This document shows, one piece after another, positions 11,664-46,123 of a stretch of DNA of 64,000 nucleotides. This stretch comes from a virus: IMG/VR virus record IMGVR_UViG_3300027782_000036, one strand, 5' to 3'. The notes below the pieces were generated by a model. The model ran no database searches. It was given only the letters and a program-made list of their open reading frames with translations, and was not told the DNA's origin. Position 1 is the first letter of the stretch, and each line of letters opens with the position of its first letter. Position numbers and translations under genes: made by a program.

Positions 11664-11684
11664 TTCAAAACGTATCAGAAACAC

Positions 11685-11710
11685 ACCCGCCTATATGGCG
11701 GGTTTTTTAT
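11685..11710 (+). terminator. Rho-independent terminator after pqqA
   Basis: ACCCGCC-TATAT-GGCGGGT followed by a T tract. Confidence 0.85.
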
Positions 11711-11722
11711 TTTGGAGATATT

Positions 11723-12517: not shown

Positions 12518-12520
12518 ATA
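12513..12520 (+). promoter_or_regulatory. T4-type late promoter
   Basis: TATAAATA upstream of hsp20. Confidence 0.6.
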
Positions 12521-12555
12521 AACGTGATACGCCTTCGGGGTATCAATTTTATTAA

Positions 12556-12573
12556 CTCGCTTAATTTAAGGAG
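12556..12573 (+). promoter_or_regulatory. ROSE-like RNA thermometer hairpin over the hsp20 RBS
   Basis: CUCGCUUA-AUU-UAAGGAG; the UCGCU motif pairs with the SD; upstream UUCG hairpin at about 12526-12545. Confidence 0.65.
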
Positions 12574-12582
12574 AACTTAAAC

Positions 12583-22531: not shown

Positions 22532-25063
22532 TTGAAGACTTTCTATACTAATGTTCAATCGATGGGTAATTATATACTTTATCGTGGTGTCAAAGATGGT
22601 AAAAGGTTTAAAACAAGAATCGAATACCAACCAACGATGTATGTTCCATCTCGTAAAGTTGCCAATTTCACATCTTTAAATGGTGACTATCTTGAACCAT
22701 TTAAGGCAGGTGGTATTCGTGATACTAGAGATTTCATTAAAAAATATGAAGATGTTGAAGGTTTCAAAATCTATGGTCAAAATAGATTCGAATATGCTTT
22801 TATTGCTGAACAACATCCAGATATGGTTGAATGGGATCAAGATAAAGTATCCATAGCAATTATCGATATTGAGGTTGGTTCTGAAAATGGTTTTCCTGAT
22901 CCATATAAAGCAGACGAACCTATTACAGCAATTGCAATTAAATATATTAATGGTGATATGATTGTCTTTGGCTGTGGTGATTATGAAGTTAAAGGTGAAG
23001 AGAAATATATTAAATGCCAAAACGAACATTCATTGTGTCACAAGTTTATGGAATTATGGACTAAAAGATGTCCAGATATTATCACAGGATGGAATACTAA
23101 ATTCTTTGATATTCCATATATCATTAATCGCTTTCGTAAAATACTCGGTGAAGATGAAACTAAAAAGTTATCTCCATGGACTTATATTGGTGAGCGTAAA
23201 ACTGTCATCAATGGTCGAGAGTTTATTGCCTATGATATGTCTGGTGTTTGTTCTTTAGATTACATCGAATTATACAAATGGTACGCACCTGGCGGTAAAT
23301 CACAAGAGTCCTATCGATTAGACTATATTGCTGAAGTTGAATTAGGTAAAAACAAATTATCTTATGATGAATACGATAATCTACATGAACTTTTCAGACT
23401 AAACTATCAAAAGTTTATTGAGTATAATATTGTTGACGTTGAACTCATTCAAGAACTTGAAGATAAGTTAAAGTTAATTGAATTGGCTATGACTTTGGCT
23501 TATGATACGAAATCAAATTATGATGATGTATTTGCTCAAACTCGTATGTGGGATTCTTTAACATATAGTTATCTACTCAAACAAAATATTATTGTTCCAC
23601 CAAGAGAAGTGAAATCTAAAGATTCAGCTTTTGAAGGTGCTTATGTTAAAGATCCACAAGTTGGCAAACATGATTGGGTGGCATCATTTGACTTGAATTC
23701 ATTGTATCCACATCTTATCATGCAGTATAATATTTCACCAGAAACATTGATTGAACCAAAAGATTATACAGATGTTATGAAAGATATCATTTCAAAAGGT
23801 GTCAATGTTGATAAGTTATTGAATAAAGAAATTGATACATCAAAATTAGAAGGTGCAACTATTACACCTAATGGACAATTCTTTAGAACTGATATGCATG
23901 GTTTCTTACCAAAGATGATGCTTGAGATGTATGAAGATCGTAAGAAGTTTAAAAAATTAATGTTAAAGGCAAAACAAGACTATGAAAACGAACAAGACGA
24001 AAGTAAGAAATACGAAATCTCAAAGAGAATCGCAAGATACGATAATCTACAACTCGCTAAAAAGGTCTCTCTTAATTCTGCTTATGGTGCTCTTGGCTCT
24101 CAATATTTTAGGTTCTACGACTTACGGCAGGCACTTGCCGTTACGCTGGCTGGTCAATTAAGTATTCGTTGGATCGAAGGCAAACTTAATGGATACATGA
24201 ATAAATTATTAAAAACAGAGGATGATTATGTTATTGCGTCTGACACGGATTCTATCTACCTCAAACTTGCGCCGTTGGTGGATGCAATCTATAAAGAAGA
24301 GAAGTCAACTACTAAAGTTATCTCCTTCATGGACAAGGTTTGTGAAACTAAAATTCAACCGTTTATCGATGATAGTTATAAGGAACTTGCGGATTATGTC
24401 CATGCTTTTGAACAAAAGATGGAAATGAAACGAGAAGGTTTATCTGACAAAGGCATTTGGACTGCCAAGAAACGATATATTCTAAATGTTCATAATAACG
24501 AAGGTATTCAATATAAAGAACCTAAACTAAAGGTCATGGGTCTTGAGATGATTAAATCATCAACACCATCTGCTGTTCGTGTTAAGATGAAAGAATCCAT
24601 TAAAGTGATGTTGAATGGAACTGAAACAGATGTCCAAAAGTTTATTGCTGACTTTAAAGAAGAATTTCAACACCTTCCAGTAGAAGACATATCTTTTCCA
24701 AGAGGAGTCAATGGAATTAAAGAATATGCGGATTCAGCAAGTATATATAAGAAGAGCACACCAATACATGCAAAAGGTGCATTGATATATAATCACTTCT
24801 TAAAAAGCTTTAAATTAGATAAGAAGTATCCATTGATTCAAGACGGTGAAAAGATTAAATTTGTTTATCTTAAAACACCTAATACGTTTAATCAATCTGT
24901 AATTTCATTTCCCAATAGAATTCCTAAGGAATTTGATATTGAGAAGTTTGTAGATTATGATTTACAGTTTGAGAAAACATTCTTGGATCCTATTAAGATT
25001 ATTCTTGATTGCCTGCATTGGAGTACCGAAAAACAAAGTTCATTAGAGGATTTCTGGACATGA
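22532..25063 (+). CDS. gp43: Family B DNA polymerase
   Basis: DIEV exonuclease motif, SFDLNSLYP, KVSLNSAYG, ASDTDS. Confidence 0.97.
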   Translation: MKTFYTNVQSMGNYILYRGVKDGKRFKTRIEYQPTMYVPSRKVANFTSLNGDYLEPFKAGGIRDTRDFIKKYEDVEGFKIYGQNRFEYAFIAEQHPDMVEWDQDKVSIAIIDIEVGSENGFPDPYKADEPITAIAIKYINGDMIVFGCGDYEVKGEEKYIKCQNEHSLCHKFMELWTKRCPDIITGWNTKFFDIPYIINRFRKILGEDETKKLSPWTYIGERKTVINGREFIAYDMSGVCSLDYIELYKWYAPGGKSQESYRLDYIAEVELGKNKLSYDEYDNLHELFRLNYQKFIEYNIVDVELIQELEDKLKLIELAMTLAYDTKSNYDDVFAQTRMWDSLTYSYLLKQNIIVPPREVKSKDSAFEGAYVKDPQVGKHDWVASFDLNSLYPHLIMQYNISPETLIEPKDYTDVMKDIISKGVNVDKLLNKEIDTSKLEGATITPNGQFFRTDMHGFLPKMMLEMYEDRKKFKKLMLKAKQDYENEQDESKKYEISKRIARYDNLQLAKKVSLNSAYGALGSQYFRFYDLRQALAVTLAGQLSIRWIEGKLNGYMNKLLKTEDDYVIASDTDSIYLKLAPLVDAIYKEEKSTTKVISFMDKVCETKIQPFIDDSYKELADYVHAFEQKMEMKREGLSDKGIWTAKKRYILNVHNNEGIQYKEPKLKVMGLEMIKSSTPSAVRVKMKESIKVMLNGTETDVQKFIADFKEEFQHLPVEDISFPRGVNGIKEYADSASIYKKSTPIHAKGALIYNHFLKSFKLDKKYPLIQDGEKIKFVYLKTPNTFNQSVISFPNRIPKEFDIEKFVDYDLQFEKTFLDPIKIILDCLHWSTEKQSSLEDFWT

Positions 25064-26086: not shown

Positions 26087-27160
26087 ATGAGCATTTTAGA
26101 TAAGATTAAAAAGAACACCAGTATTAAAGACGCAGCTATTCTATCACATTCTAAATTCTTTACCGAAAAGGATATGATACAAACACAGATACCAATTATT
26201 AATGTTGCGTTATCTGGCAAATTAGATGGTGGTTTAACACCAGGTTTAACAATGTGGGCTGGCCCATCTAAACACTTTAAGACTGCCTTTTCATTATTGA
26301 TGGCTAAATCTTATCTTGACAAATATCCTGATTCTGCTTTATTATTCTATGACAGTGAGTTCGGCACTCCACAATCATACTTTGATTCTTTTGGTATTGA
26401 TACTAAACGTGTATTACATACTCCAATTACTGACATCGAACAATTAAAGTTTGACATCATGCAACAACTTCAAGGACTTGAACGTGATGATAGAGTTATT
26501 ATCGTTGTAGATTCTATTGGTAATTTGGCATCAAAGAAAGAAGTTGAAGATGCTCTTGATCAGAAATCAGTTGCTGATATGTCAAGAGCTAAACAAGTTA
26601 AATCATTATTCAGAATGGTAACACCACATCTTAATCTTAAAAACATTCCAATGATTGTAGTTAATCACACTTACATGGAAATTGGTATGTTCCCTAAAGC
26701 AATCGTAGGTGGTGGCACAGGTTCATATTATTCTGCTGATAACATCTTTATTATTGGTCGTCAACAAGAAAAAGAAGGTCAAGATATCATTGGTTATAAC
26801 TTTATTATTAATGTGGAGAAATCAAGATATGTTAAAGAGAAAGCTAAAATCCCTGTTACTGTTTCCTTTGAAGGCGGTATTTCTCGTTTTTCAGGTTTAC
26901 TTGATGTTGCTATTGAAGGCAACTTCGTTGTTAAACCATCTAATGGCTGGTATTCAAAAGTTGATACTGAAACAGGTGAAGTTCAAGAGAAGAAATATCG
27001 TATCAAAGAAACTGACACCGAAGATTTCTGGAAAGATATCTTAGCAAGTAAGAAGTTCCAAGAATATATTAAAAACAAATATACAGTAGCATCTGCTGAC
27101 ATCATGAATTATTCACAACCTGAAATTGAAATTGAGGTTGAGGAGGAAGAAGATGCGTGA
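26087..27160 (+). CDS. uvsX: RecA-like recombinase
   Basis: AGPSKHFKT, YDSEFG, DSIGNLAS, GGGTG. Confidence 0.95.
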   Translation: MSILDKIKKNTSIKDAAILSHSKFFTEKDMIQTQIPIINVALSGKLDGGLTPGLTMWAGPSKHFKTAFSLLMAKSYLDKYPDSALLFYDSEFGTPQSYFDSFGIDTKRVLHTPITDIEQLKFDIMQQLQGLERDDRVIIVVDSIGNLASKKEVEDALDQKSVADMSRAKQVKSLFRMVTPHLNLKNIPMIVVNHTYMEIGMFPKAIVGGGTGSYYSADNIFIIGRQQEKEGQDIIGYNFIINVEKSRYVKEKAKIPVTVSFEGGISRFSGLLDVAIEGNFVVKPSNGWYSKVDTETGEVQEKKYRIKETDTEDFWKDILASKKFQEYIKNKYTVASADIMNYSQPEIEIEVEEEEDA

Positions 27161-27473
27161 AGCAGTTGATTATGAATATGTAATAGATGAGAAAGATAAA
27201 AATTCGGTACATATTAAATTACTTACCGGTGAATATAAAGATACCCTATTCAAATATGGTAAAGTCGGTGTCAAAGAAGAAGATGATAAAGCCTATTTAC
27301 AATTTAACTTTGATGTGATACAATCACCGATTAAGAATTTAGAAAAAAAATTAGAATTCAGAAATTATATTGGTGATCTATTATCGATTATTATTACAAA
27401 ACAAGTAGACGTGGAAGAAACATATTATGATGAGAACCGAACTGACGATATTAAAGAATCTGGTATTCAATGA
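27153..27473 (+). CDS. Hypothetical protein at the gp40 position
   Basis: Between uvsX and gp41; GGAGG RBS. Confidence 0.6.
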   Translation: MREAVDYEYVIDEKDKNSVHIKLLTGEYKDTLFKYGKVGVKEEDDKAYLQFNFDVIQSPIKNLEKKLEFRNYIGDLLSIIITKQVDVEETYYDENRTDDIKESGIQ

Positions 27474-28791
27474 TGAATATTCAAAGAAAGTCTTACCTTT
27501 CATAAAAAGTGAATATTTTTCAGATAGAACAGACAAACTAATTCATGAACAAATTAATGATTATATACTCAAGTATAATTCATTACCATCTTATGAAGCT
27601 TTAGTATTATCCCTTAAAGAGAAAAATGGACTTACTGCCGAAGAGGTGAATAAGTCCACCGAACTCTTACAAGAAATAAATCAAACAAAAAATGAAGAAT
27701 CCAAACTAGATTGGCTTCTTGACGTTACCGAAAAGTTCTGTCAAGAGAAGGCTATCTATAATGCGGTATTGGATTCTATTCATATTCTCGATAACAAGTC
27801 TAAGAACGATAAAGGGGCCATTCCTGGCATACTTTCCGATGCTCTGGCAGTGTCTTTTGATAGCCATATAGGTCATGATTACTTGGGTAACTCGGATGAA
27901 CGATATGACTTCTACCATAGAAAAGAAGAAAGAATACCATTTGATCTAGAGTATTTCAATAAGATCACCAAAGGTGGTTTACCACAAAAGACTTTGAATA
28001 TTGCTTTGGCTGGTACCGGTGTCGGTAAGTCATTGTTTATGTGTCATGTGGCCGCAGGTGCAATGGTTCAAGGACGCAATGTTCTTTATATTACGATGGA
28101 AATGGCAGAAGAAAGAATTGCCGAACGTATTGATGCAAACCTACTGAATGTTAGACTGGACGACCTTACAGACTTACCAAAAGACGTTTATGACAAGAAA
28201 ATTGGTAAAGTTCGTGAAATGACTACAGGAAAGCTAATTATTAAAGAGTATCCGACTGCGGCGGCCAGTGCTGTCCATTTTCGAACACTTCTTAACGAAT
28301 TGAATTTAAAGAAGAATTTCGTACCTGATATTATATTCATAGATTACCTAAATATTTGTTGTTCCTCTAGAGTTAAACCAGGGGCTTCGGTCAATTCTTA
28401 TACTTACATTAAAGCGATTGCCGAAGAGTTGAGAGGTTTGGCTGTAGAGTTTTCAGTACCAATCGTGAGTGCCACACAGACTACAAGAAGTGGTTTCACC
28501 AATTCTGACCCAGGTCTTGAAGACACATCAGAATCTTTTGGTCTACCAGCAACAGCTGACTTCATGTTTGCCTTAATTTCATCAGAAGAGATGGAAGAAT
28601 TAGGTCAAATCATGGTGAAACAGTTAAAGAACAGATATAATGATCCTACACATTATAAGAGATTTGTATTGGGTGTAGATCGAGCTAAGATGAAGTTGTA
28701 TGATGTAGAACAAGTTGCACAGGTTGACTTGGTAGATTCAGGTCAAAATCAAAAAACTTTTAAAAAGAATTTCGACGGATTTAAGATATGA
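27427..28791 (+). CDS. gp41: Replicative DNA helicase
   Basis: AGTGVGKS, EMAEERI, IDYLNI, SATQTTR, KQLKNRY. Confidence 0.96.
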   Translation: MMRTELTILKNLVFNDEYSKKVLPFIKSEYFSDRTDKLIHEQINDYILKYNSLPSYEALVLSLKEKNGLTAEEVNKSTELLQEINQTKNEESKLDWLLDVTEKFCQEKAIYNAVLDSIHILDNKSKNDKGAIPGILSDALAVSFDSHIGHDYLGNSDERYDFYHRKEERIPFDLEYFNKITKGGLPQKTLNIALAGTGVGKSLFMCHVAAGAMVQGRNVLYITMEMAEERIAERIDANLLNVRLDDLTDLPKDVYDKKIGKVREMTTGKLIIKEYPTAAASAVHFRTLLNELNLKKNFVPDIIFIDYLNICCSSRVKPGASVNSYTYIKAIAEELRGLAVEFSVPIVSATQTTRSGFTNSDPGLEDTSESFGLPATADFMFALISSEEMEELGQIMVKQLKNRYNDPTHYKRFVLGVDRAKMKLYDVEQVAQVDLVDSGQNQKTFKKNFDGFKI

Positions 28792-34885: not shown

Positions 34886-35800
34886 ATGAGATGCATAGTT
34901 ACAGGTGGAGCCGGATTCATTGGTTCACATATTGTTGATAGATTAGTTTTGATGGGTGCAGATGTTACCGTAATTGATGATGAATCGGCAACATGTCATG
35001 ATAATTTTAATTACAATGATATGGCTGAATATTATAAGTTTGATATTTCAGACTATAATCAAATTAGATCATTATTTGATGGCATAGATTATGTATTTCA
35101 TCTAGCCGCTGAATCTCGTATTCAACCAACAATTGATAATCCAATTTTAGGGTTTAGAACAAATACATTAGGCACAGTTACAGTATTACAATGTGCTAGG
35201 GAAGCGGGTGTCAAACGAGTAATGTATTCATCAACATCATCTGCTTATGGATTAAAAAATATACCACCACTCAAAGAAGATATGCTTGTAGATTGTTTAA
35301 ATCCATATTCAGTAGCTAAAGTCGCTGGTGAAAGTGCCTGTAAGATGTATACAGATCTATTTGGATTAGAAACAATTACATTTAGATACTTTAATGTATA
35401 CGGTTTAAGAGAACCACTTAAAGGTCCTTATGCTCCAGTTGTTGGTCTATTCTTACGAAAACATAAAGCTGGTGAAACATTAACGATTGTTGGTGATGGT
35501 GAACAACGAAGAGACTTCACTCATGTCAGTGATGTAGTTGAAGCTAACATATTGGCTATGACAAATGGTATTCCTGGAAGTTTATATAATATTGGTACAG
35601 GAAGAAATCATTCCGTCTTAGAACTTGCAGCTATGATATCAAATAATTTAGAATTCATTGCGCCAAGATTAGGTGAAGCAAGAGAAACTATGGCATGTAA
35701 TAATAAATCATTTACCGAATTGAAATGGACACCAGTCTATAAGATTGAAGATTATGTTGCGGAAAGATTAACGAATGGGTATAACGAATGGGTAATATAA
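34886..35800 (+). CDS. NAD-dependent nucleotide-sugar epimerase
   Basis: VTGGAGFIGS, HLAA, YSVAK, RYFNVYG, RDFTHV. Confidence 0.9.
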   Translation: MRCIVTGGAGFIGSHIVDRLVLMGADVTVIDDESATCHDNFNYNDMAEYYKFDISDYNQIRSLFDGIDYVFHLAAESRIQPTIDNPILGFRTNTLGTVTVLQCAREAGVKRVMYSSTSSAYGLKNIPPLKEDMLVDCLNPYSVAKVAGESACKMYTDLFGLETITFRYFNVYGLREPLKGPYAPVVGLFLRKHKAGETLTIVGDGEQRRDFTHVSDVVEANILAMTNGIPGSLYNIGTGRNHSVLELAAMISNNLEFIAPRLGEARETMACNNKSFTELKWTPVYKIEDYVAERLTNGYNEWVI

Positions 35801-36600
35801 CAATAGTAACGGCGTTTTTTGATATTGGTAGAGGTGATTGGACACCAGAAAAAGGTCTTCCACATTACTTACAACGATCAAACGAAACCTATCTAGAAAG
35901 ATTCGGCCATCTTGCCACTTTAAATAATGAAATGGTAATCTTCACATCAGCTGATTTGGTTGATAAGATTACACCATATCGTAAAGGTAAAGAAGACATT
36001 ACCAAGATTATTGCTATCGATTATAAAGATATGTTCAAAGAAGAACGTCTAAACATAGCGTTAATCCAAACAGATGAAGATTATAGAAGTAAGATCAACC
36101 CATCACAGATTAAGAATCCAGAATATTGGTCAGCTGACTATGTTTTGGTAAACTTCTTAAAATCACATTTTGTCAATCATGCAATCGAGAGTGGTTCTGT
36201 CACTAATGATACAGCAGCTTGGATAGACTTTGGTTACTGTCGAGATATGTCTATGTTAGGTGGTCATACTGAGTGGAACTATGATTTCACTAAAGATAAG
36301 ATTCACTTTTTCCAACATAAAGAATTTGATAATACCAAAACTATTTTAGATGTTATTGCCAACAATGATGTTCACATTCTAGGTGCCAAGATCGTGGCAA
36401 GTGTTGAGATGTGGCCTACATTAGAGAAGATAATGGATCACTCTATTAGAGAAATGATGAAACACAAGTTAATAGATGATGACCAAACGGTTATGTTAAT
36501 TTCAAGTCTTTTGAAACCTGAGCTATTTGAAATACATAAAATTGTGCCGGATCATACATGGATTGAACATAATTCGATTTTCAAAGAATATAACGTATAA
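35788..36600 (+). CDS. HtrL/YibB-family protein
   Basis: TIVTAFFDIGR, AWIDFG, DDDQ. Confidence 0.8.
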   Translation: MGNITIVTAFFDIGRGDWTPEKGLPHYLQRSNETYLERFGHLATLNNEMVIFTSADLVDKITPYRKGKEDITKIIAIDYKDMFKEERLNIALIQTDEDYRSKINPSQIKNPEYWSADYVLVNFLKSHFVNHAIESGSVTNDTAAWIDFGYCRDMSMLGGHTEWNYDFTKDKIHFFQHKEFDNTKTILDVIANNDVHILGAKIVASVEMWPTLEKIMDHSIREMMKHKLIDDDQTVMLISSLLKPELFEIHKIVPDHTWIEHNSIFKEYNV

Positions 36601-36603
36601 ATA
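36596..36603 (+). promoter_or_regulatory. T4-type late promoter
   Basis: TATAAATA ahead of the internal-protein cluster; GATAAATA variants at 40306 and 43767. Confidence 0.7.
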
Positions 36604-36638
36604 GTTATATCATTACGACCATAGTGTGTTGTTAACCA

Positions 36639-37805
36639 ATGAAAACTTTTTATACCCATTTAACCGAGCAGGCCGAAGGTGAGAAACTCACCCATATCGA
36701 GCATTTAGAAGACCATCCAATCAATAATGGATCTGAAGGATTTAAAAAATCCATAGATGTTCTACATGGTGTTAAACAACACATTCTTGCTGGCCGCAAT
36801 AATTCAGATTTAACTATGAAACATGATGGATCACCGTCTATTGTTTATGGTCATCATCCAGAAACTGGTAAGTTTTTTGTTGCCACCAAATCAGCTTTCA
36901 ATAAAACACCAAAGATTAACTATACAGATAAAGACATTGAAAAGAACCACGGTCATGCTCCTGGTCTAGTAGATAAACTTAAATCTGCATTACATAATAT
37001 TCCAAAAATAGCACCTAAAAAAGGTGTTTTCCAAGGTGACGTTTTACATTCCGGCACTGATGTAGAAAAGAAAAATGGTAAAGTAAATTTTACGCCTAAT
37101 ACAATTACATATTCAGCTAAAAAAGATTCACCAGAAGGACAAAAGATAGCCAAGTCTAAATTTGGATTATACACTCATACTGAATATAGAGGTGACGATG
37201 CTTCTTCGATGAAAGCACATTTTAATCCTAATCTATCGGGTTTTAAACAAAATGCAGATGTCTATCATAGAGAACCTGGCCATGATACATCTAAAACACC
37301 ATTGAAACCAGAAGATTCAAAAGAATTTGATAAACACGTTCAAGCTGCTGAAAAATTAAATAAAGAATCTGGTAATAAAATGTATGCTTCTGTTGAACCA
37401 CACAAAGAACATATTAAAACATATATTAATCATACAGTAAAAACTGGTGAAACTCCAAGTGCTGAAGGACTTGCTAATCACATTACAGGTAAACTTGGTA
37501 AAGTAATTGACAAGTTAAAAACACCAAAAGCTAAAGAAGCCAAGACTCAAGAATTAAAAAATCATTTATCTCACATTGAAAAGAATAAAAATCATCTTGA
37601 TAATGTATTTCAAATGCACCATCACCTACAACAAGCAAAAAATGTATTAGTAAAAACACTATCACGAAATACTGGTGGACTTGAACATACAATTAATGGT
37701 CAAAAAGTTAAACCTGAAGGCTTTGTTTATAATCATAACGGTGAAGCAACTAAATTAAATGATAGGGCTGAGTTTAATAGACTTAATGCTTTAAAAAGAC
37801 AATGA
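36639..37805 (+). CDS. Putative ligase-fold nucleotidyltransferase (DUF6267-like) with a capsid-targeting-like N-terminus
   Basis: MKTFYTHLTE; KHDG (motif I), FQGD (III), PEGFV (IV), K (V). Confidence 0.55.
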   Translation: MKTFYTHLTEQAEGEKLTHIEHLEDHPINNGSEGFKKSIDVLHGVKQHILAGRNNSDLTMKHDGSPSIVYGHHPETGKFFVATKSAFNKTPKINYTDKDIEKNHGHAPGLVDKLKSALHNIPKIAPKKGVFQGDVLHSGTDVEKKNGKVNFTPNTITYSAKKDSPEGQKIAKSKFGLYTHTEYRGDDASSMKAHFNPNLSGFKQNADVYHREPGHDTSKTPLKPEDSKEFDKHVQAAEKLNKESGNKMYASVEPHKEHIKTYINHTVKTGETPSAEGLANHITGKLGKVIDKLKTPKAKEAKTQELKNHLSHIEKNKNHLDNVFQMHHHLQQAKNVLVKTLSRNTGGLEHTINGQKVKPEGFVYNHNGEATKLNDRAEFNRLNALKRQ

Positions 37806-37993
37806 AATCATTTAAGTCATTTTTAGAAGCAAGAGCTCCTTTAGTTAAAACTGATGTTGATGATTTACATAAAGAATTAGCATCTCATGATTTTGCTCAA
37901 AGAAATTCTTCTTCTGAAAAAGCTAAAGAATATCACAGAACTCAGGCATTAAAAGTTCTTGAAAAAATGAAAAAAAGAATTGGAATGAAATGA
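37802..37993 (+). CDS. Small putative internal head protein
   Basis: MKSFKSFLEA leader. Confidence 0.6.
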   Translation: MKSFKSFLEARAPLVKTDVDDLHKELASHDFAQRNSSSEKAKEYHRTQALKVLEKMKKRIGMK

Positions 37994-38607
37994 AAACATT
38001 CAAATCATTTTTAACAGAAAGTGGTCTTCATATGTTTGATATAGATGATACTCTATTTCACACTAGTGACAAGATTCATGTTAAAGATAAGTTTGGCAAT
38101 ACAGTTCAAACATTAAGTAACCAAGAGTTCAATACTCACAAATTACCTAAAGATCACAGTTATGATTTCTCTGAGTTTAGAAATGCTGACAAGTTTCATA
38201 AAGAAGGTGAACCTATTCACCCTATGATTAACAAACTCAAAGCAATACAGAAGAACGTGGAGAAGAAGACTGGTAGTAAGGTCATTATAAATACAGCAAG
38301 GTCTGATTTTGATAAACAAGGTAAGTTTGCTAAGAAGTTTAAGAAACATGGAATTGATATTAATAAAGTCCATGTAGAACGAGCAGGTAATATTCCTGGT
38401 GATGAACCACCATCAGAGAAGAAAGTAAAAGTGGTTAAAAAGTATTTAGATAATCATCCATATAATCATGTAACACTATATGATGACAGTAAACAAAATT
38501 TATCTAGATTATTAAAAATGAAAAAGGAATATCCAAACGTCAAGTTTCATGCTTATCATGTTCAACCTGACGGAACAACGAAGAAATTAAACGATGACTC
38601 AAATTAA
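37990..38607 (+). CDS. HAD-family phosphatase with a capsid-targeting-like leader
   Basis: MKTFKSFLTE; FDIDDTL, TAR, K, YDDSKQN. Confidence 0.75.
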   Translation: MKTFKSFLTESGLHMFDIDDTLFHTSDKIHVKDKFGNTVQTLSNQEFNTHKLPKDHSYDFSEFRNADKFHKEGEPIHPMINKLKAIQKNVEKKTGSKVIINTARSDFDKQGKFAKKFKKHGIDINKVHVERAGNIPGDEPPSEKKVKVVKKYLDNHPYNHVTLYDDSKQNLSRLLKMKKEYPNVKFHAYHVQPDGTTKKLNDDSN

Positions 38608-40366
38608 ATCTTTTATAGAATTAACGGAAGAAAAGAATAAGGCCGTAGTCTTACACTATGGTCGTATGAATCCTCCTACAAAAGGCCATGAAGAAAATAT
38701 TAATGGTGTAAAAGATTTGGCTGCAAAACATAATGCAGACCATTTGGTTGTTGCTTCACATACTCAAGATAAGAAAAAGAATCCATTAACACCAGAACAA
38801 AAACAAAAGCATTTAAATAGAGCTTTTCCAGATACTAACATTGAAGTTGCTTCTAAAGAAAAACCTACAATCATGCACCATGCAAAAGCTTTGGCTGCAA
38901 AAGGTTACAATCACCTTATTGTAGCCGCTGGTGCCGATAGAGCAAAAGAATATCATGATCTATTACACAAATACAATGGTAAAGAATATAACTTTAAAAA
39001 GATTACAGTAACATCTACAGGTCAGAGAAAAGAGGGTGTATCTGGTACTGATATGCGTAATCATGCTAAGAATAATGATTATGGTTCATTTAAAAAGAAT
39101 TTACCATCCAATATTCAAAAGAACGACAAACATTCAAGAGAATTATTCCATGACACAAAAAGTGGTATGGGATTACATGAAAACGCAAATCGTAGTATGT
39201 TCAAAGCATTATTCCTGGTTGGTGGACCTGGTTCAGGAAAAGATGTTATTATTCGAGAAGCAATTGCAGAAAAGAACGCAGTTGAGATTAATGCCAACAA
39301 AGCCTACGATTTCATAATCGACAAATTAAAGTTATCGGAAGAAACTAAAGACTATCAACTCAATGCTATTCGAAATAGAAACGCATTGGTGATTAATGGT
39401 GCTTCAGATGACATTACAAAGATTTCTACTATCAAAGAAGAACTTGAAGAATTGGGTTACACAACAATGATGGTATTTGTTAATACGACAAATGAGATAT
39501 CAGAAAGACGTAACCAACAACATTCTAGAATCATTTCTGAACAAATTAGAATTGATAAGTGGAATAAATCACAAGAAAATCTTGATAAGTTTTATGATAT
39601 ATTTGAAGCTTTTTTAGAATTCGATAATTCGATCAATTTACAGGAATCAGATGCCCTTGTAAAAGAGAATAAAGAAAACGAACTGAGTGACATGTCTAAT
39701 GAGATTTCATTCTTCTTTAGAACTAAAGTATTGACAGAAACGGCTAAAGATTGGTTGAGATCAAAGAATCGTTTAGATGTAAATGAAGACATCAAGTCAC
39801 TATTCGAGAAAAGAAAAGTATTAAAAGATAATAGTGCTCCTATCACACAAATGACTAGAAAAGATGGTAAAATTGATAGAGTTGATGATGGTGATGTTAA
39901 AGATAACTCTAGTTATATCTTCAGAACTTATGTTGAATCACAACCAACATTGAAGATTAATCCTACACCAAAAGTACCAAATTTTGATCAAGATAAAGAA
40001 TCTAAAAAGAACAAAAGAACAGCAGTAAACAACGTATTACCTGGCAAAGTCATGAATGGCACAGGCGTAGGTGATACATGGGATAATAGAACTTCTGGTA
40101 CCGTATATCCAATGAGTGGTCTTGGTAACACAACATACAGAGAAAGTTTCAATAAGTTTAGAAATAAAGTTAAAGAGGCCATTGACGATCCAGGTGCTTC
40201 AGACATGGGAACGTTTGGTGGTATGGGTAATGGTGTCGATAAAGAACCATTAGAAACACCATTGAACAAATTTTCATCATCAGGTGATAATACAAAGAAA
40301 AAAAAGATAAATAAGCAATCAAATGCTGGTTCTAGCGTAGAGCAGAAGCAAACCAGTGGAAAATAA
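38594..40366 (+). CDS. HxGH nucleotidyltransferase fused to a P-loop kinase-like domain
   Basis: GRMNPPTKGH, GADR, VSGTDMR, then GGPGSGKD; KSFIELTEE leader. Confidence 0.7.
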   Translation: MTQIKSFIELTEEKNKAVVLHYGRMNPPTKGHEENINGVKDLAAKHNADHLVVASHTQDKKKNPLTPEQKQKHLNRAFPDTNIEVASKEKPTIMHHAKALAAKGYNHLIVAAGADRAKEYHDLLHKYNGKEYNFKKITVTSTGQRKEGVSGTDMRNHAKNNDYGSFKKNLPSNIQKNDKHSRELFHDTKSGMGLHENANRSMFKALFLVGGPGSGKDVIIREAIAEKNAVEINANKAYDFIIDKLKLSEETKDYQLNAIRNRNALVINGASDDITKISTIKEELEELGYTTMMVFVNTTNEISERRNQQHSRIISEQIRIDKWNKSQENLDKFYDIFEAFLEFDNSINLQESDALVKENKENELSDMSNEISFFFRTKVLTETAKDWLRSKNRLDVNEDIKSLFEKRKVLKDNSAPITQMTRKDGKIDRVDDGDVKDNSSYIFRTYVESQPTLKINPTPKVPNFDQDKESKKNKRTAVNNVLPGKVMNGTGVGDTWDNRTSGTVYPMSGLGNTTYRESFNKFRNKVKEAIDDPGASDMGTFGGMGNGVDKEPLETPLNKFSSSGDNTKKKKINKQSNAGSSVEQKQTSGK

Positions 40367-40379
40367 ACAGGAGATAATA

Positions 40380-42989
40380 ATGTCATCAAAATTTGCCCCA
40401 GATGTTCCAAAATCACTAATCGATGCGGTCAGTTCTATTATGAACGAAGCTAAAGCGGATGAACTCCCACCAATCGATAAAACAGAAGCACAAAAACGTA
40501 AAGAACGTCAAGCTAAACTAGACGCTATTGAAGACAAACGTGCTGAACGTGATGCCGGCAAAGAAAAACCTAAAAGTGCTGTTACTAAAGTATCTGGTAC
40601 ACAATATGGTGGTTCTAAACAAAAAGACCCTGTTGAAGTTGAAGAAGAATTATCTCCAAAACAAAAGAAAATTGCTGCTATGGCAGGCGATAAAGGTAAA
40701 ATTGATGCTGATGATTTGGCTGCATTGAGATCAGGTAAAAAACCAGGATGTGATACTTGTGATGAAGAAACTGTAGAAGAAAAACATATGACTGATGCTG
40801 AGATGGCAAAACGTGAAAAGATTGTTAAATCGATGAAAAAAGGTTTAGCAGGCTTCAAAGCGAGATATGGCTCTAAAGCTAAAAATGTAATGTATGCTAC
40901 AGCTACTAAACAATCCATGAAAAGTGAAGAAACAATTACAGAAGGCATTGTAAACCATGCTGACATCGCCAAAGACTTAGTAAAAAAACACGGTAAAAAT
41001 GTAACAATGGATCACATTGATGATTACATCGATGGTGCTGATGATGCACATAAAGTTGATAAACGAGAAGTATTACATCACATCAAACTTCTACAAGATA
41101 TGAATTGTGAAAGTGTTCAAATTACTGAAGGCAAACTTCGTGGCATGGGAGCTGTCTATACTGATATGATGGATCATGCTACTAAGAAGGGTTATACAAA
41201 TAAAAAACAATTTACTAAAGCTGACTATGAAACTATTGGTAAACAAAATGGTGTTAGTGGTGCAGACATAGCTATCGTTGCTGGTCATCACACTGCTGAT
41301 AGCTATAGTAAACTTAAAGAAGCTAGTGAACCAAAGAAAATTGAGCCACCATTCACACCAGATAAAAAACCTAAAAAAATAGCAGTTCCTGGTAAACATG
41401 GTTATGGTCCATCAGCAGCTTCACATTTAGCACATCTAGGTATGAAATCTCTTCAAAAGAATTCATTTGATCCGGACTTATCAGAAGGCACAGGTGGTCC
41501 AATCTATACTAAACCATTAGTTAAACTTGGTGATCTTCTTGCTCGTGCTAAAGATATGAAAAATATCAAACAAGCAACTATTGTTAATCCTAAAGATGAA
41601 AATCAAGTTGCAATGAAAAAAGAAGATGTCGAATCAACTGAAGATAGACATAAAAGAGAAGATGAAGAAGAAAGAGAACGTAAACGTAAAGAACAGATAG
41701 CAAAAAATAATAAAGCATTTGTAAGAGCTGTTAAGCGTCAAAAAACTCCTGGTGCTAGTCTTGGCATTGCTAAAGACATCCAACAAAGATATTATAAAAC
41801 AGGTAAATGGGAAGAAGTTTCAATAGTTGAAAGTATTGAAGTCAAAAAAGAATATGATGATAAAGATGAAACTGAACATGGTGTTTATCATAATGGTAAA
41901 AAAATTGGATATGTAGTTCATCATAAACCAAGTAACACACATACTGCTTATCACAGTCCATCAAGTTATGATAAAAAAGGACATGCGGATGACTATGAAG
42001 AAATTGATGATTTTCATAATCATAAAGATGCGGTTAATCAAATTAAAAGTTCAGCTTTAGATGAAACTTACATGGGTAAAGCTGGTTGCACATCAGAAGA
42101 CGATAAAAAAAAAGATAAGAAACCGGTAGATTACGATAAACCAACATTCTTACGTAAAAAGGATGATTGGAGAAAAAGTAATCTAGCACATCTACCTAAA
42201 CCAACAAAAGAAGATGTTGAGTTAGATGAACGTGTAATTACACCAGGTACAGGAACTTCACCTGACCCACTTCTAGCTAGAACTGGTTTAAATAAAGTTT
42301 TAAGAAAACCAAGAGTTGGACAGACTAATTTAAAAAATATACCCGGTGGAAATTTACCAGGAAGCCAATATAAATTTTCTGATGATGAAAAAACCAAACA
42401 ACGAGCATCATTAAAAACTGCAATCAAGTCAACACTTGCTAATAAAGAGCATGGTGTAAAACGTAAATTGCCAGAAGAAATCGAACAACTTGATGAATTA
42501 GATCCTAAAACGTATGCATCATATGCTAATAAAGCAGTTGGTGATACAACTAAAGATAGATCAAAAATGATTAAGGTTGCTGATAAGAAACTTTATGGCA
42601 ATCCAGATTTAAGATACAAATCTGAAGGTTTTAACACATTTAAAGGTGTGGCCGCTGAAATAAAAGCTGGAACATTTAGTAGAAGTAAACCTGATTTAGA
42701 ATTGGCCAAACAAAAGAAAAAAGATTTAGAATCTTCTTTTGAAAATAAAACAAAAAAGAGAACCGAAGAAGTTTCAATAGATGAAACAGCAACACTAGAC
42801 AAATATATCAGATCAATGGGTTATGACCCACAACATCTTGATAAAAATAAAAAAGTGATGTTCGCTAAAACGAATGCATATAAAACATTTGCATCATCAC
42901 AAAAAACAGAAGGTTTATATGATGGTGGCCAAAAAGGTACCCAAGACATTGATGACCATATGTCACCAGGTGCGACTGCTAGAGGATAA
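40380..42989 (+). CDS. Large charged, modular putative internal head protein
   Basis: AGGAG RBS before ATG 40380; late-type box at 40306; many [ILV]xE sites. Confidence 0.65.
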   Translation: MSSKFAPDVPKSLIDAVSSIMNEAKADELPPIDKTEAQKRKERQAKLDAIEDKRAERDAGKEKPKSAVTKVSGTQYGGSKQKDPVEVEEELSPKQKKIAAMAGDKGKIDADDLAALRSGKKPGCDTCDEETVEEKHMTDAEMAKREKIVKSMKKGLAGFKARYGSKAKNVMYATATKQSMKSEETITEGIVNHADIAKDLVKKHGKNVTMDHIDDYIDGADDAHKVDKREVLHHIKLLQDMNCESVQITEGKLRGMGAVYTDMMDHATKKGYTNKKQFTKADYETIGKQNGVSGADIAIVAGHHTADSYSKLKEASEPKKIEPPFTPDKKPKKIAVPGKHGYGPSAASHLAHLGMKSLQKNSFDPDLSEGTGGPIYTKPLVKLGDLLARAKDMKNIKQATIVNPKDENQVAMKKEDVESTEDRHKREDEEERERKRKEQIAKNNKAFVRAVKRQKTPGASLGIAKDIQQRYYKTGKWEEVSIVESIEVKKEYDDKDETEHGVYHNGKKIGYVVHHKPSNTHTAYHSPSSYDKKGHADDYEEIDDFHNHKDAVNQIKSSALDETYMGKAGCTSEDDKKKDKKPVDYDKPTFLRKKDDWRKSNLAHLPKPTKEDVELDERVITPGTGTSPDPLLARTGLNKVLRKPRVGQTNLKNIPGGNLPGSQYKFSDDEKTKQRASLKTAIKSTLANKEHGVKRKLPEEIEQLDELDPKTYASYANKAVGDTTKDRSKMIKVADKKLYGNPDLRYKSEGFNTFKGVAAEIKAGTFSRSKPDLELAKQKKKDLESSFENKTKKRTEEVSIDETATLDKYIRSMGYDPQHLDKNKKVMFAKTNAYKTFASSQKTEGLYDGGQKGTQDIDDHMSPGATARG

Positions 42990-42990
42990 A

Positions 42991-43779
42991 ATGAATCAAT
43001 TAGACGAATTTGCTAAAGACGTTGTAGATAGATATATCAAGTCTATGGGTTATAATCCACAGACTATTGATAGAAATAGACGTATGGCTTTAACTAAAAC
43101 GATCAGATTTCAACAGTTTGCACAACGTATGCGAGAAGAAGTTGAATCTTTACAGGAAGGTGAATATTATCCTGAAAAAGTTGCAAAAGCTTTACCTAAA
43201 GGTTTAAAAAGTGAAAAAGATATTTTAAATCATTCTCATGAACATGTTACTAAAGAATTAGGTAAAAAACAGGCTGATCATTTACACTACTACGACCAAG
43301 ATTTTCCTAGTGATGTTGTGTCTAACTATGCACATCTTCATAATAAAAGTGAAAAATTGAGTCTCGAAGCTTTAGAGTTTCCAGGTGATGATGGTATGAA
43401 TGCTAAAGGTTCTAGTTCTAAAGTTGTCGGAGAAAGAGCAAAAGGAATGTCTAAAAACGCAAACCTAATTAAAGCAATATACAAATATCATAAAGTTAAA
43501 AAAGAAGTAAAAGAAGAGCTATATGACCACGAAAAAGATGACAAAGGTGGTGAAGAAACATATGGCAAGAAACCCAAATTTGCTAAAGTAAAAGAAGGTG
43601 AGAAAGAAGATCAGTCAGATAGTAAAACAAAAGCAGCGGCTGTATTAACTGGTGGAACAACATTAACAGGTCAAAAACGAGATGATGTCGAGTTTGATCC
43701 AATGTTGAATAAACCTAATACAAATTCTGATACTTCTGGAATGCAAATTAAAGCAGATAAAAAAAAGATAAATAGATAG
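42991..43779 (+). CDS. Putative internal head protein
   Basis: GAGGA RBS; repeats the YIxSMGYxP module of the upstream gene. Confidence 0.65.
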   Translation: MNQLDEFAKDVVDRYIKSMGYNPQTIDRNRRMALTKTIRFQQFAQRMREEVESLQEGEYYPEKVAKALPKGLKSEKDILNHSHEHVTKELGKKQADHLHYYDQDFPSDVVSNYAHLHNKSEKLSLEALEFPGDDGMNAKGSSSKVVGERAKGMSKNANLIKAIYKYHKVKKEVKEELYDHEKDDKGGEETYGKKPKFAKVKEGEKEDQSDSKTKAAAVLTGGTTLTGQKRDDVEFDPMLNKPNTNSDTSGMQIKADKKKINR

Positions 43780-43810
43780 TAACATCTAACAAGATTAAAG
43801 GAGAATAAAG

Positions 43811-44362
43811 ATGTCCTCATGGGGAAATAACGATAACGCAGCGAACTCACCACTTTGGGGTGCGGGAACTGTCAATTTAACACCATCATCGGCTAATAGA
43901 ACATTACTTTACGGTAACACTAGAATTAGTGAAATTGTATCTGGTATAGAAGTTGGTGTATTTGGTGTTGATTCGACCGAAGCAAATTTAAAAAAGGCTG
44001 GCGCACACTCAGGTTGGGTTAGACGAGTTAAAGGCACAGGACCAGTTGTTAGTATTACAGCTAATACTGGTGCTCACGGTGCTAACGGATACTTAACATT
44101 TACTGGTGGTGGCACAGGAAGTTCTGCTGCTAATGCTTACATGTATGTAAAAACAACAGGTGAAGTTAAAAATGTAGTAGTATTAACTGCCGGTACATAT
44201 TCAGCTACACCAACAGCAGTTAGACCAACAGGCGGCGCTGCAAATTCAACATTCACAGTAATTATGGGTGGTCGTGCTAATAGAGAACAACAAGAAGTAT
44301 TAGCTGCTATGGATACTATTATCAGTGATGGTTCTGATGATACTATCTACCCTGATTCCTAA
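43811..44362 (+). CDS. Late virion structural protein (G/T/A-rich)
   Basis: MSSWGNND, AHSGWV, C-terminal DDTIYPDS; late-type box and strong RBS. Confidence 0.65.
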   Translation: MSSWGNNDNAANSPLWGAGTVNLTPSSANRTLLYGNTRISEIVSGIEVGVFGVDSTEANLKKAGAHSGWVRRVKGTGPVVSITANTGAHGANGYLTFTGGGTGSSAANAYMYVKTTGEVKNVVVLTAGTYSATPTAVRPTGGAANSTFTVIMGGRANREQQEVLAAMDTIISDGSDDTIYPDS

Positions 44363-44374
44363 TATTTGATAAGG

Positions 44375-44402
44375 TGTTGGAGAGAAATCTCCAACATTTA
44401 AT
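44375..44402 (+). terminator. Rho-independent terminator
   Basis: TGTTGGAGA-GAAA-TCTCCAACA followed by a T-rich tail. Confidence 0.75.
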
Positions 44403-44409
44403 TTGTTAA

Positions 44410-44796
44410 ATGCTAAATGATTTAAATGATGAGAATTTCACGATATATGCAATGAAATCTTATAATTCTCCAAATTGCATAATGTCTGAATTTGAGGGTG
44501 ACTTAAAAAGAACGAAGTATCTTAAAAAGTTATTTCGTAAATATAAGAAAAGCAATATATTAAAAGAGAGATTGATACTTAATCATATCATTCTCGTTTA
44601 CAATGTCTTTGGTGTAGAAGCAGCCACAAGGATTCTATTCTATAAGATAGATGATCGTGACTACGATATACTAAAGACATTTTTATTGTATCTCAATTAT
44701 ATGCCTGATAAAGTTATTGGCATTAGAGGTAATAACATAGATTCATCTACTATTATGGTAGATATGAACATCGCAGAGATATTGAGGAAACTATGA
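44410..44796 (+). CDS. Conserved T4-like hypothetical protein
   Basis: YAMKSYNSP, ERLILNHII, LKTFL. Confidence 0.7.
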   Translation: MLNDLNDENFTIYAMKSYNSPNCIMSEFEGDLKRTKYLKKLFRKYKKSNILKERLILNHIILVYNVFGVEAATRILFYKIDDRDYDILKTFLLYLNYMPDKVIGIRGNNIDSSTIMVDMNIAEILRKL

Positions 44797-45227
44797 AAAC
44801 ATTCAAAGCTTTTTTAGAAGAAGTTAAAAAACCTACAGGTGATTTAAAAGATGCTTGTTGGAAAGGTTATACTGCTGTCGGAACAAAAAAGAAAAATGGC
44901 CAAGAAGTTCCTAATTGTGTTCCTACTAAAGAAGAAGTGGAACTAGAAGAATCAACTCCTGCATGGCAACGTTCAGCTGGCAAAGATCCTGAAGGTGGTT
45001 TAAACCGTAAAGGTATAGCTTCATATCGTAGAGAACATCCTGGTTCAAAACTATCTATGGCTGTTACTACCAAACCAAGTAAATTAAAACCCGATTCAAA
45101 AGCTGCTAATAGAAGAAAATCATTCTGTTCAAGAATGAAAGGCATGAAGGCCAAACTAACTTCAGCAAAAACTGCTAAAGATCCGGATTCAAGAATTAAC
45201 AAATCATTAAGAAAGTGGAATTGCTAA
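44793..45227 (+). CDS. Putative internal head protein
   Basis: MKTFKAFLEE leader; CWKGY...VPNCVP; RRKSFCSRM. Confidence 0.7.
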   Translation: MKTFKAFLEEVKKPTGDLKDACWKGYTAVGTKKKNGQEVPNCVPTKEEVELEESTPAWQRSAGKDPEGGLNRKGIASYRREHPGSKLSMAVTTKPSKLKPDSKAANRRKSFCSRMKGMKAKLTSAKTAKDPDSRINKSLRKWNC

Positions 45228-46123
45228 TGAAATCATTTGGTAAACTCAGAAAAGAAGCTTGTTGGACAGGATATAAAGCTAAAGGCATGAAAAAGAAAGG
45301 TGATCGAATGGTCCCTAATTGTGTGCCTGAAGATGTTCAATTACAAGAAGAAGATGGTTATTCACATGAAGTTCATGTTCGTAACTATGATGAACCGGAT
45401 GATGAACATTCTACATTTCCAAAAGATCATATCAACTATGGTGTAAACCAACATCATGGTACATTTAAAGGTGCTACTGATAAAGGTTATGTGTTTGGCT
45501 TCAGAGAGAAAGAACATGCTGACAAATTTGTTAAACATGTTAATACACATAAACATACTCATGCTGAACATTTATCGGAAGAAGTTATTCAAGAAGCAGA
45601 TGAAAAAGATACAATAACTTTTGATATACCATTACTCATTCGTGTATTCGAACTTGTTCGTGAAGATGTGAAAACAGATGTAGCGTTACATAAAGTTGTT
45701 GAACGACTTATTGATATGCGCCATAAAGGTATATTAACTATGGATGACTATATGACTATTGCTCATCTTAAAGAAGAAGTAGAACAAATTCAAGAAATTG
45801 GTGATACGCCGGCTGGCAAAGAAACTTTAAAATCATATAAACAAAAAGCTAATTTAGATAGAACATATACTATGATGAGACCTAGTGCTCCTGATGCTTT
45901 AAATGATAGAAAATGGAAAAACAGAAATGTCGGTGCAGCTCAAGCTAGAAAAAGATTAGGTGAAGATGGCATCGCAGTTCCAGGTCCAACAAATACAGCA
46001 GGTTCAGGTGCAGTAGCAGGATTAGGTCAACCACCTGGTAGTAAATCTGGTGAACCACCAGTTGGAAAAAGACGTAAGCCAATTGTCATAAAAATGACTC
46101 GTAGAAGTCCTCCTAAAATGTAG
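45227..46123 (+). CDS. Putative internal head protein
   Basis: MKSFGKLRKE leader; CWTGY...VPNCVP; DIPLLIRVFE. Confidence 0.65.
   Translation: MKSFGKLRKEACWTGYKAKGMKKKGDRMVPNCVPEDVQLQEEDGYSHEVHVRNYDEPDDEHSTFPKDHINYGVNQHHGTFKGATDKGYVFGFREKEHADKFVKHVNTHKHTHAEHLSEEVIQEADEKDTITFDIPLLIRVFELVREDVKTDVALHKVVERLIDMRHKGILTMDDYMTIAHLKEEVEQIQEIGDTPAGKETLKSYKQKANLDRTYTMMRPSAPDALNDRKWKNRNVGAAQARKRLGEDGIAVPGPTNTAGSGAVAGLGQPPGSKSGEPPVGKRRKPIVIKMTRRSPPKM

Follow-up and report, generated by a model that had tools for sequence, protein, structure and literature searches.

A late gene cluster with shared N-terminal leaders

We analyzed a 64,000-nucleotide stretch of viral DNA (IMG/VR virus record IMGVR_UViG_3300027782_000036; the window), which comes from a T4-like marine myophage, and focused on a cluster of four genes that sits downstream of its replication genes. 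The cluster encodes a predicted ligase-fold protein of family DUF6267, a small orphan protein, a predicted phosphatase of the haloacid dehalogenase (HAD) superfamily, and a nucleotidyltransferase-kinase fusion. All four products begin with leaders that resemble the capsid targeting sequence (CTS) of T4 internal proteins. The features of the cluster, with protein lengths in amino acids (aa) and isoelectric points (pI), are as follows.

36596 to 36603, + strand: T4-type late promoter box TATAAATA, 35 nt upstream of the gene 1 ATG
36639 to 37805, + strand: gene 1, DUF6267 protein with predicted ligase fold; 388 aa, start MKTFYTHLTE (36639 to 36668), pI 9.4
37802 to 37993, + strand: gene 2, orphan; 63 aa, start MKSFKSFLEA, pI 9.9
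37990 to 38607, + strand: gene 3, predicted HAD-superfamily phosphatase; 205 aa, start MKTFKSFLTE, pI 9.5
38594 to 40366, + strand: gene 4, nucleotidyltransferase-kinase fusion; 590 aa, start MTQIKSFIELTEE
38594 to 39181, + strand: gene 4 leader MTQIKSFIELTEE and (T/H)xGH nucleotidyltransferase domain (aa 14 to 196; Pfam CTP_transf_like)
39191 to 39793, + strand: gene 4 P-loop kinase domain (aa 200 to 400; Walker A GGPGSGKD; pI 4.9)
39794 to 40366, + strand: gene 4 basic tail (aa 401 to 590; Lys/Asn/Gly/Asp-rich, with short conserved motifs; pI 9.6)

A sequence-only reading of this DNA had described four coupled late genes with these starts. The open reading frames were confirmed, with successive overlaps of 4, 4, and 14 nt, and the TATAAATA octamer upstream of gene 1 is scarce, with 3 copies in the window versus 10.3 expected. 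In 33 of 79 related loci, the DUF6267 start is preceded at a distance of 35 to 51 nt by [TC]ATAAATA, which none of 42 sites upstream of gp41, UvsX, or HtrL carries. The best explanation is that the four genes form one predicted late transcription unit, which would start from TATAAATA at 36596. Both TATAAATA and CATAAATA are about 3-fold rarer than in shuffled window sequence (3 versus 10.3 and 3 versus 8.1, respectively), a pattern that would fit counterselection of stray late promoters.

DUF6267 is predicted to adopt a ligase fold

Gene 1 is a full-length match to Pfam DUF6267 (E value of 1e-94), a family of 2,100 representative clusters at 50% identity. An AlphaFold2 model built from an alignment with 82 relatives had a predicted local distance difference test score (pLDDT) of 94.3 and a predicted template modeling score of 0.91. 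When this model was compared by VIA-align with 48,161 representative chains of the PDB, ranks 1 to 20 were all polynucleotide ligases (Z of 8.6 to 5.7, with 145 to 202 residues aligned), in agreement with the ligase fold that had been suggested for 36639 to 37805. RNA ligases headed the ranking: Naegleria NgrRnl (an Rnl5 enzyme; 5cot, Z of 8.6), the ligase domain of fungal Trl1 (7.9 and 7.4), T4 Rnl2 (7.4), T4 Rnl1 (7.0), and trypanosome REL1 (6.9), with 164 to 202 residues aligned; DNA ligases ranked below them, with Z of ≤6.6. Foldseek gave weak matches to archaeal DNA ligases (E value of 0.04, probability of 0.82) and none at an E value of ≤0.001, so the ligase assignment draws on VIA-align and the sequence motifs.

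Ligase motifs I, III, IV, and V occur in canonical order in gene 1, and the KHDG, FQGD, EGFV, and K elements picked out from the sequence are strongly conserved in the 82 relatives. In motif I (K61-H-D63-G64), G64 is invariant and K61 and D63 are at least 90% conserved; Q132-G-D134 (III), E360-G-F-V363 (IV), and K372 (V) are invariant or at least 90% conserved, and K84 and R376 are conserved too. An oligonucleotide-binding (OB) domain with motif VI is absent from the model, in which the chain ends 12 residues past motif V, after one helix. Gene 1 thus shares with the ATP-dependent RNA ligases named above the fold, the motif order, and the lack of an OB domain. It differs from them in three respects: motif V is a K-x-x-x-R variant rather than K-x-K, a near-invariant H-x-x-H-x-E-D opens the mature protein, and a helical bundle of about 120 residues (aa 224 to 341) is inserted between motifs IIIa and IV. 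A short DUF6267 protein of cyanophage S-SCSM1 (ORF257, 294 aa; contig L123, 4407 to 5291), with KMDG as its motif I, is missing most of the helical insertion, which is therefore dispensable for the family. At the other extreme, the long relatives P0043 and P0050 carry a fused LysM domain or Pol-beta-type nucleotidyltransferase.

At the sequence level, DUF6267 stands apart from known ligases. DUF6267 was the only Pfam family to match gene 1; RNA_ligase, RNA_lig_T4_1, and the related models went unmatched, and PDB sequence searches with the single sequence and with a profile gave no hit. The hhalign comparison with T4 Rnl1 aligned the two only at motifs IV and V (EGFV/KL on EGYV/KI) with a probability of <1%. 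Taken together with the model, we are confident that gene 1 has a ligase fold. DUF6267 would then be a new family with an RNA-ligase type of fold, belonging to none of Rnl1 to Rnl5, for which catalysis is predicted from the conserved motifs. RNA is more likely than DNA to be the substrate, as judged from the model, because an OB domain is absent and the closest likeness is to RNA ligases. Our literature search found no mention of DUF6267 and no paper linking RNA ligase, cyanophage, and cytidylyltransferase.

Gene 4 joins a nucleotidyltransferase to a predicted P-loop kinase

The first domain of gene 4 matches Pfam CTP_transf_like (PF01467) with 24.4 bits against a cut-off of 21, and the structural model of the protein, from which the tail (aa 401 to 590) was excluded, had a pLDDT of 86. 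The sequence-only reading had assigned this protein an HxGH nucleotidyltransferase motif and a GGPGSGK P-loop. The P-loop stands, as GGPGSGKD, while the HxGH motif does not: the sequence reads TxGH (PPTKGH; T29-K-G-H32, with H32 invariant). S150-G-T-D-M-R155 is a second motif of the domain. By VIA-align, the domain reached Z of 14 to 15 over about 150 residues, with phosphopantetheine adenylyltransferase (PPAT) tied with NadM/archaeal nicotinamide mononucleotide adenylyltransferase (NMNAT). Relatives of gene 4 are labeled NMNAT/predicted kinase in their source annotations.

The kinase domain matches Pfam Zeta_toxin (23.3 bits against a cut-off of 22.3). Its P-loop has Asp where the Walker A consensus GxxxxGK[ST] has Ser or Thr, which had been taken as a sign of a degenerate kinase; GKD is instead the conserved state of the family, found in 116 of 120 relatives. 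Foldseek placed the kinase domain on the polynucleotide kinase of Clostridium thermocellum (CthPnk; 4jt2) and equally on shikimate, thymidylate, and adenylate kinases. Matches that covered both domains were to NadR (1lw7, E value of 8e-7; 6gyf, 6gzo, and 8x7f) and to ATP sulfurylase/adenosine 5′-phosphosulfate (APS) kinase. In the Pelagibacter phage HTVC008M, kinase and nucleotidyltransferase are separate genes. The nucleotidyltransferase domain of gene 4 ends in a GMGLHE linker (39173 to 39181) of low pLDDT in which G191, M192, and E196 are invariant; read as [L]xE, it is a candidate prohead protease site. The aligned tail contains conserved islands.

Gene 3 is a predicted HAD enzyme and an occasional member of the cluster

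By its motifs, gene 3 is a HAD enzyme. The full motif set noted earlier is present (D17-I-D-D-T21, T102-A-R104, K145, and D165-D166), and D17, D19, T21, T102, K145, D165, and D166 show no variation among 41 relatives. Of the matches that carry a name, the best is phrog_415, “polynucleotide kinase” (E value of 9e-8); Pfam matches to HAD_SAK_2 and DUF2608 (HAD clan) are weak and below cut-off. Against the phosphatase of T4 PseT/Pnkp, hhalign aligned the HAD profile over only 17 columns, around motif I, with a probability of 23%. Atlas relatives of gene 3 match families of the HAD clan, with faint matches to Acid_phosphat_B and DUF2608, and the Acid_phosphat_B-type family includes nicotinamide mononucleotide (NMN) 5′-nucleotidases. 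The family has 746 relatives, with a leader on 76 of the top 120.

The idea that the genes are conserved as a cluster holds for two of them. In 74 of 82 loci, the ligase-fold and nucleotidyltransferase-kinase genes are direct neighbors or form a fusion, and fusions of ligase and nucleotidyltransferase exist in both orders. The HAD gene lies directly beside the ligase gene in 10 of 80 loci and is not a core member; in the 163-kb genome G002, a tagged HAD gene is placed about 8 kb from the prohead protease gene instead.

The leader families match the T4 capsid targeting sequence at four key positions

In the T4 CTS, residues 4 and 7 serve targeting and residues 8 and 10 serve processing, which is blocked by Asp at position 10 (PMC9026906, a review of T4 head assembly). 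The proposed likeness of the leaders to this sequence was borne out in a comparison with T4 ipI, ipII, and ipIII (IPII and IPIII, MKTYQEFIAE; IPI, MKTFKEF), and family-wide the conserved leader positions are 4, 7, 8, and 10. Sequence logos of the families show F/Y at position 4 (F in the three enzyme families), F/Y at 7, L/I at 8, and E at 10. Glu occupies position 10 in 59 of 65 DUF6267 leaders and 90 of 93 HAD leaders, Asp being rare, and the leader of the nucleotidyltransferase family is one residue shorter and ends in L-x-E-E. Within the window, the HAD protein and the product of a gene at 44793 carry all the CTS determinants at 4, 7, 8, and 10, and the gene 4 leader is a shifted CTS variant that ends in LTE.

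We then counted starts with the strict form of the pattern (M-x-x-F-x-x-[FY]-[LI]-x-E) in 80 related contigs. It occurs in 67 of 81 DUF6267 proteins, 40 of 74 nucleotidyltransferase-kinase proteins, and 11 of 15 DUF6321 proteins. It was found in none of the neighbors searched: HtrL (0 of 18), gp41 (0 of 15), DUF7207 (0 of 30), and proteins of the type of P183, which is encoded at 43811 to 44362. By our estimate, composition would yield the strict pattern at about 4 per 10,000 starts. Cultured phages with tagged genes include Melnitz EXVC044M and Stenotrophomonas phage DLP_6. The DNA polymerase of the window (22532 to 22549) opens with the same six residues, MKTFYT, as the DUF6267 protein (36639 to 36656). 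MKTF- alone is therefore not diagnostic, and positions 7, 8, and 10 are needed.

Other features of the proteins and of related phages fit the leaders. The tagged proteins have pIs of 9.1 to 10.0, versus 5.4 to 6.0 for gp41, UvsX, gp43, and HtrL. A gp21-type protease (Peptidase_S77) was found in 5 of 5 related genomes tested. In the DUF6267 and HAD proteins of the window, the [LI]xE site of the leader is the only one. Across relatives, the observed/expected ratio of such sites is 0.61 for mature DUF6267, 0.05 for HAD, and 0.20 for the nucleotidyltransferase domain; the sequences are mutually related, so that these ratios overstate independence and are weak evidence. On balance, it is likely that the products of the four genes are loaded into the head, and tagged proteins are probably injected with the DNA.

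Homologs of gene 4 are found in purified virions

The nucleotidyltransferase of gene 4 matches S-SCSM1 ORF91, annotated “NMNAT (virion protein)” and detected by mass spectrometry (32% identity over 198 residues, E value of 1e-27). ORF91 starts with MKSFLQFLKE and is preceded by an ATAAATA box. The DUF6267 protein of the same phage has no leader and does not appear in the list of virion proteins, and its gene lies elsewhere, in a group of small genes; set against tagged ORF91, it serves as a modest natural control for the leader. The virion protein encoded beside the NMNAT, S-SCSM1 ORF90, was tested as a possible DUF6267 protein and is not one.

Similar detections have been reported for S-CBWM1, and three peptides of a cytidylyltransferase were found in the virion proteome of S-CREM2 (PMC10665884). 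The same paper also reports, at second hand, a protein kinase in S-CRM01 virions. The S-CRM01 cluster contains a kinase gene, g130, that starts with MISFDQFLSE and a cytidyltransferase gene, g127, that starts with MKLFNQFFKE, and we infer that g130 encodes the kinase detected in virions.

A variable slot and additional tagged genes surround the enzymes

The cluster follows the replication genes gp43, UvsX, and gp41 and then a glycosyltransferase/epimerase island, the last gene of which belongs to the HtrL family. The order gp43-UvsX-gp41-...-DUF6267-...-cytidyltransferase is common to HTVC008M, the Synechococcus phages S-PM2 and S-CRM01, and the Methylophilales phage Melnitz. Features outside the cluster are the following.

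22532 to 25063: DNA polymerase gp43
26087 to 27160: UvsX
27427 to 28791: gp41
35788 to 36600: HtrL-family gene at the end of the island, directly before the cluster
44793 to 45227, + strand: fifth tagged gene, DUF6321; 144 aa, start MKTFKAFLEE, pI 10.0

The earlier list of four tagged genes was correct as far as it went and missed the fifth, at 44793 to 45227. Homologs of this DUF6321 protein carry a leader in 11 of 15 loci and are often encoded between the DUF6267 gene and the nucleotidyltransferase gene, and judging by these sequences the gene is probably part of the same cargo set.

The 63-aa product of gene 2 matched no family in Pfam, PHROG, or NCBIfam, and a single relative, 95% identical, was found among 5.8 billion proteins. 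NCBIfam searches yielded nothing above cut-off, and PDB sequence searches with three cluster proteins and two profiles returned nothing useful. In the nearest relative of the window, a 26-kb contig (L003/G001), the slot of gene 2 is filled by an unrelated 327-aa gene that starts with MKTFKTYLSE, which suggests that the 63-aa gene occupies a variable cargo slot. When positions 10001 to 12785 of this contig are compared with 36639 to 38607 of the window, the flanks are 96 to 100% identical (gp41, 100%; nucleotidyltransferase-kinase, 99%), DUF6267 is 84% and HAD 81% identical, and the gene between them is replaced outright. Recombination at the leader DNA that these genes have in common may have produced this local mosaic.

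The genes past the cluster (40356 to 46123) encode basic proteins, with a leader or a remnant of one at 44793 (MKTFKAFLEE) and 45227 (MKSFGKLRKE). The 45227 gene has a Cys-Trp-x-Gly-Tyr motif, and homologs of both genes in other phages are often located between the ligase and nucleotidyltransferase genes. The N terminus of P183 resembles that of S-SCSM1 ORF95, annotated “tail fiber (virion protein).” The entire stretch from 36.6 to 46 kb may encode virion proteins. Directly upstream of DUF6267, Melnitz gene 15 (L083, 7914 to 8999) and HTVC008M gp126 (L001, 6926 to 7984) are genes of about 355 aa without a Pfam match; Melnitz gene 15 starts with MQGFKTFLSE and may encode another tagged cargo protein.

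Discussion

The observation made from the sequence was confirmed, and its interpretation is partly supported: the cluster belongs to a real, widespread head-tagged enzyme set that includes a new ligase-fold family. What the set does is a more delicate matter. The best overall explanation, which we rate slightly short of an even chance, is that the head-tagged late enzymes heal and seal polynucleotide ends; the repair function taken by itself is more tentative and somewhat more apt to fail than to hold. According to this explanation, the tag would lead the basic proteins (pI 9.1 to 9.9) into the prohead scaffolding core, where a gp21-type prohead protease would cut it off after Glu and would probably also cut the conserved GMGLxE linker between nucleotidyltransferase and kinase. 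The mature enzymes would stay with the DNA and enter the cell together with it. The cargo would consist of the DUF6267 RNA-ligase-fold enzyme, the HAD phosphatase, the nucleotidyltransferase of the PPAT/NMNAT fold, the P-loop kinase, and the small orphan. Its job would be to heal and seal broken ends at the very start of infection, with the kinase acting on 5′-OH ends, the HAD enzyme on 3′-phosphate ends, and the lysine-adenylate ligase sealing them.

Two T4 systems bear on this proposal. Like IPI, IPII, IPIII, and Alt of T4, the proteins described here begin with a 10-mer in which positions 4 and 7 are aromatic, position 8 is aliphatic, and position 10 is Glu (T4, MKTYQEFIAE; here, MKTFKSFLTE and MKTFKAFLEE). 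Late transcription, basic proteins, a gp21-type protease (here, in related genomes), and rapid gene turnover behind a constant leader (here, in the variable slot) are further likenesses to the T4 internal proteins. The cargo differs, consisting of folded enzymes of 200 to 590 aa rather than small DNA-binding or anti-restriction proteins. The genes lie after the replication genes and not at the T4 ip loci, the similarity is confined to the leader, and targeting and cleavage are here predicted from sequence. The second system is T4 Pnkp (PseT) with RNA ligase 1 (RnlA), which repairs tRNA cut by the PrrC anticodon nuclease. Its three chemistries, those of a P-loop kinase, a HAD phosphatase with DxDxT, and a lysine-adenylate ligase with KxDG, may recur here. 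The T4 enzymes, however, are cytoplasmic and not packaged, and T4 fuses kinase to phosphatase, whereas here the kinase is fused to the nucleotidyltransferase and the HAD protein stands alone.

Several observations weigh against packaged repair. With regard to packaging, position 7 of the gene 1 leader, which serves targeting and is Phe or Tyr in the family, is occupied by His, and this leader is the weakest of the four; the leader of the 63-aa protein ends in FLEA, a misfit to [LI]xE; and the kinase domain is acidic and 2.5-fold enriched in [LI]xE, to which must be added the relatedness of the sequences behind the depletion ratios. DUF6267 proteins without a leader occur in cyanophages S-PM2, S-CRM01, and S-SCSM1, so the basic role of the enzyme is independent of packaging. 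The virion evidence comes from relatives of the nucleotidyltransferase and kinase, and not from this phage or from any DUF6267 protein, and carry-over of abundant proteins in virion preparations was cautioned by the authors of one such study (PMC10665884). With regard to repair, the HAD and kinase are indistinguishable from small-molecule enzymes. The conserved core is the pair of ligase and nucleotidyltransferase, and the HAD gene joins it only occasionally. We know of no place for the nucleotidyltransferase in known heal-and-seal pathways. Heal-and-seal fits the combination of kinase, DxDxT phosphatase, and KxDG ligase, but it leaves the always-linked nucleotidyltransferase unexplained and leans on an accessory HAD.

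The nucleotidyltransferase-kinase architecture and the ligase-nucleotidyltransferase fusions are accounted for if the packaged enzymes are a nucleotide-cofactor kit, with NadR-like or CoA synthase-like (PPAT plus dephospho-CoA kinase) activities. Such a kit would replenish or provide NAD+ as infection begins, perhaps to counter defenses that deplete NAD; the HAD enzyme would act on a mononucleotide, and the ligase-fold enzyme would take AMP from NAD+ made beside it. We regard this as unlikely overall, though a serious contender. NadR combines an NMN adenylyltransferase with a ribosylnicotinamide kinase in the same order as gene 4, and Foldseek placed the two-domain model on NadR as well as on ATP sulfurylase/APS kinase. 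The NadM/archaeal NMNAT matches of the nucleotidyltransferase, the NMNAT/predicted kinase annotations of its relatives, and the MS-detected S-SCSM1 homolog, a virion protein interpreted as NMNAT in cyanophage papers, point the same way. So do the faint Acid_phosphat_B and DUF2608 matches of HAD relatives, given the NMN 5′-nucleotidases of the Acid_phosphat_B-type family, and the repeated ligase-nucleotidyltransferase fusions in either order, which are expected if one enzyme feeds the other. On the other side, PPAT is structurally just as good a match for the nucleotidyltransferase, as are many P-loop kinases for the kinase. Gene 4 also departs from NadR in its 190-residue basic tail, in its constant link to a ligase-fold gene, and, to our knowledge, in its Walker A GKD. 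DUF6267 resembles ATP-dependent RNA ligases and not the adenylation domain of NAD-dependent LigA, and the few enzyme copies that fit in a head would seem little with which to rebuild a cofactor pool.

Two further alternatives would place the enzymes in the cytoplasm or at the replication fork. If the N-terminal motif were a translation-initiation context, a recombination cassette for gene shuffling, or a tag for assembly in the cytoplasm, the enzymes would not be packaged and would act late in the cell. MKTF- starts are indeed common in this AT-rich genome, the DNA polymerase also begins with MKTFYT, cyanophage DUF6267 genes lack the leader, a variable slot between leader-bearing genes fits cassette shuffling at conserved leader DNA, and the virion data come from relatives. 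We nevertheless consider this improbable: it is the protein sequence that is conserved, at positions 4, 7, 8, and 10, while codons and other residues vary, and these positions coincide with functionally mapped T4 CTS positions (PMC9026906). Moreover, leader-bearing homologs occur in purified virions while the leaderless DUF6267 protein of S-SCSM1 is not listed there, and basic pIs go together with a late promoter. Still less probable is that DUF6267 is a phage DNA ligase that replaces T4 gp30, with the cluster as part of the replication module. The cluster does follow gp43-UvsX-gp41 in the window, HTVC008M, S-PM2, S-CRM01, and Melnitz. Searches for a PF01068 ligase were negative in Melnitz, HTVC008M, S-PM2, G002, and G003, as were those for PF01653 and PF09414 ligases in the four of these genomes to which they were applied (all but G003). 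The proposition that DUF6267 phages have no other ligase is, however, only partly true. DUF6267 and a canonical ATP-dependent DNA ligase (PF01068) coexist in 3 of 10 genomes (Stenotrophomonas phage DLP_6, Pseudoalteromonas phage XG4, and S-CRM01), which is evidence against a role confined to replication. The absence of an OB domain and the RNA ligases among the best structural matches speak against it too, and a late promoter and a head tag are ill-suited to an Okazaki-fragment ligase.

Returning to the head-tagged repair set, its fullest form is speculative and we think it unlikely as a whole: a complete nucleic-acid repair kit, centered on a new RNA-ligase family, would travel in the heads of abundant T4-like phages of the sea, a relative of the OM43 methylophage Melnitz among them, and the HxGH-type nucleotidyltransferase would be mechanistically coupled to the ligase, either making the nucleotide donor on the spot or itself adenylylating 5′-phosphate ends. 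If true, such a kit would disarm RNA-cutting abortive-infection defenses before any phage gene is expressed. In coliphages, the T4 CTS is known to direct the packaging of small anti-restriction proteins; our analysis suggests that highly abundant phages of the ocean use a T4-type address tag to load whole enzymes. DUF6267, until now a large domain of unknown function, becomes a predicted ligase-fold family. Tagged cargo would also give a concrete reason for the recurrent NMNAT-like proteins and kinases in cyanophage virion proteomes. Finally, the leader may serve as a search handle, with which the injected proteome of uncultured T4-like phages could be listed from sequence alone.

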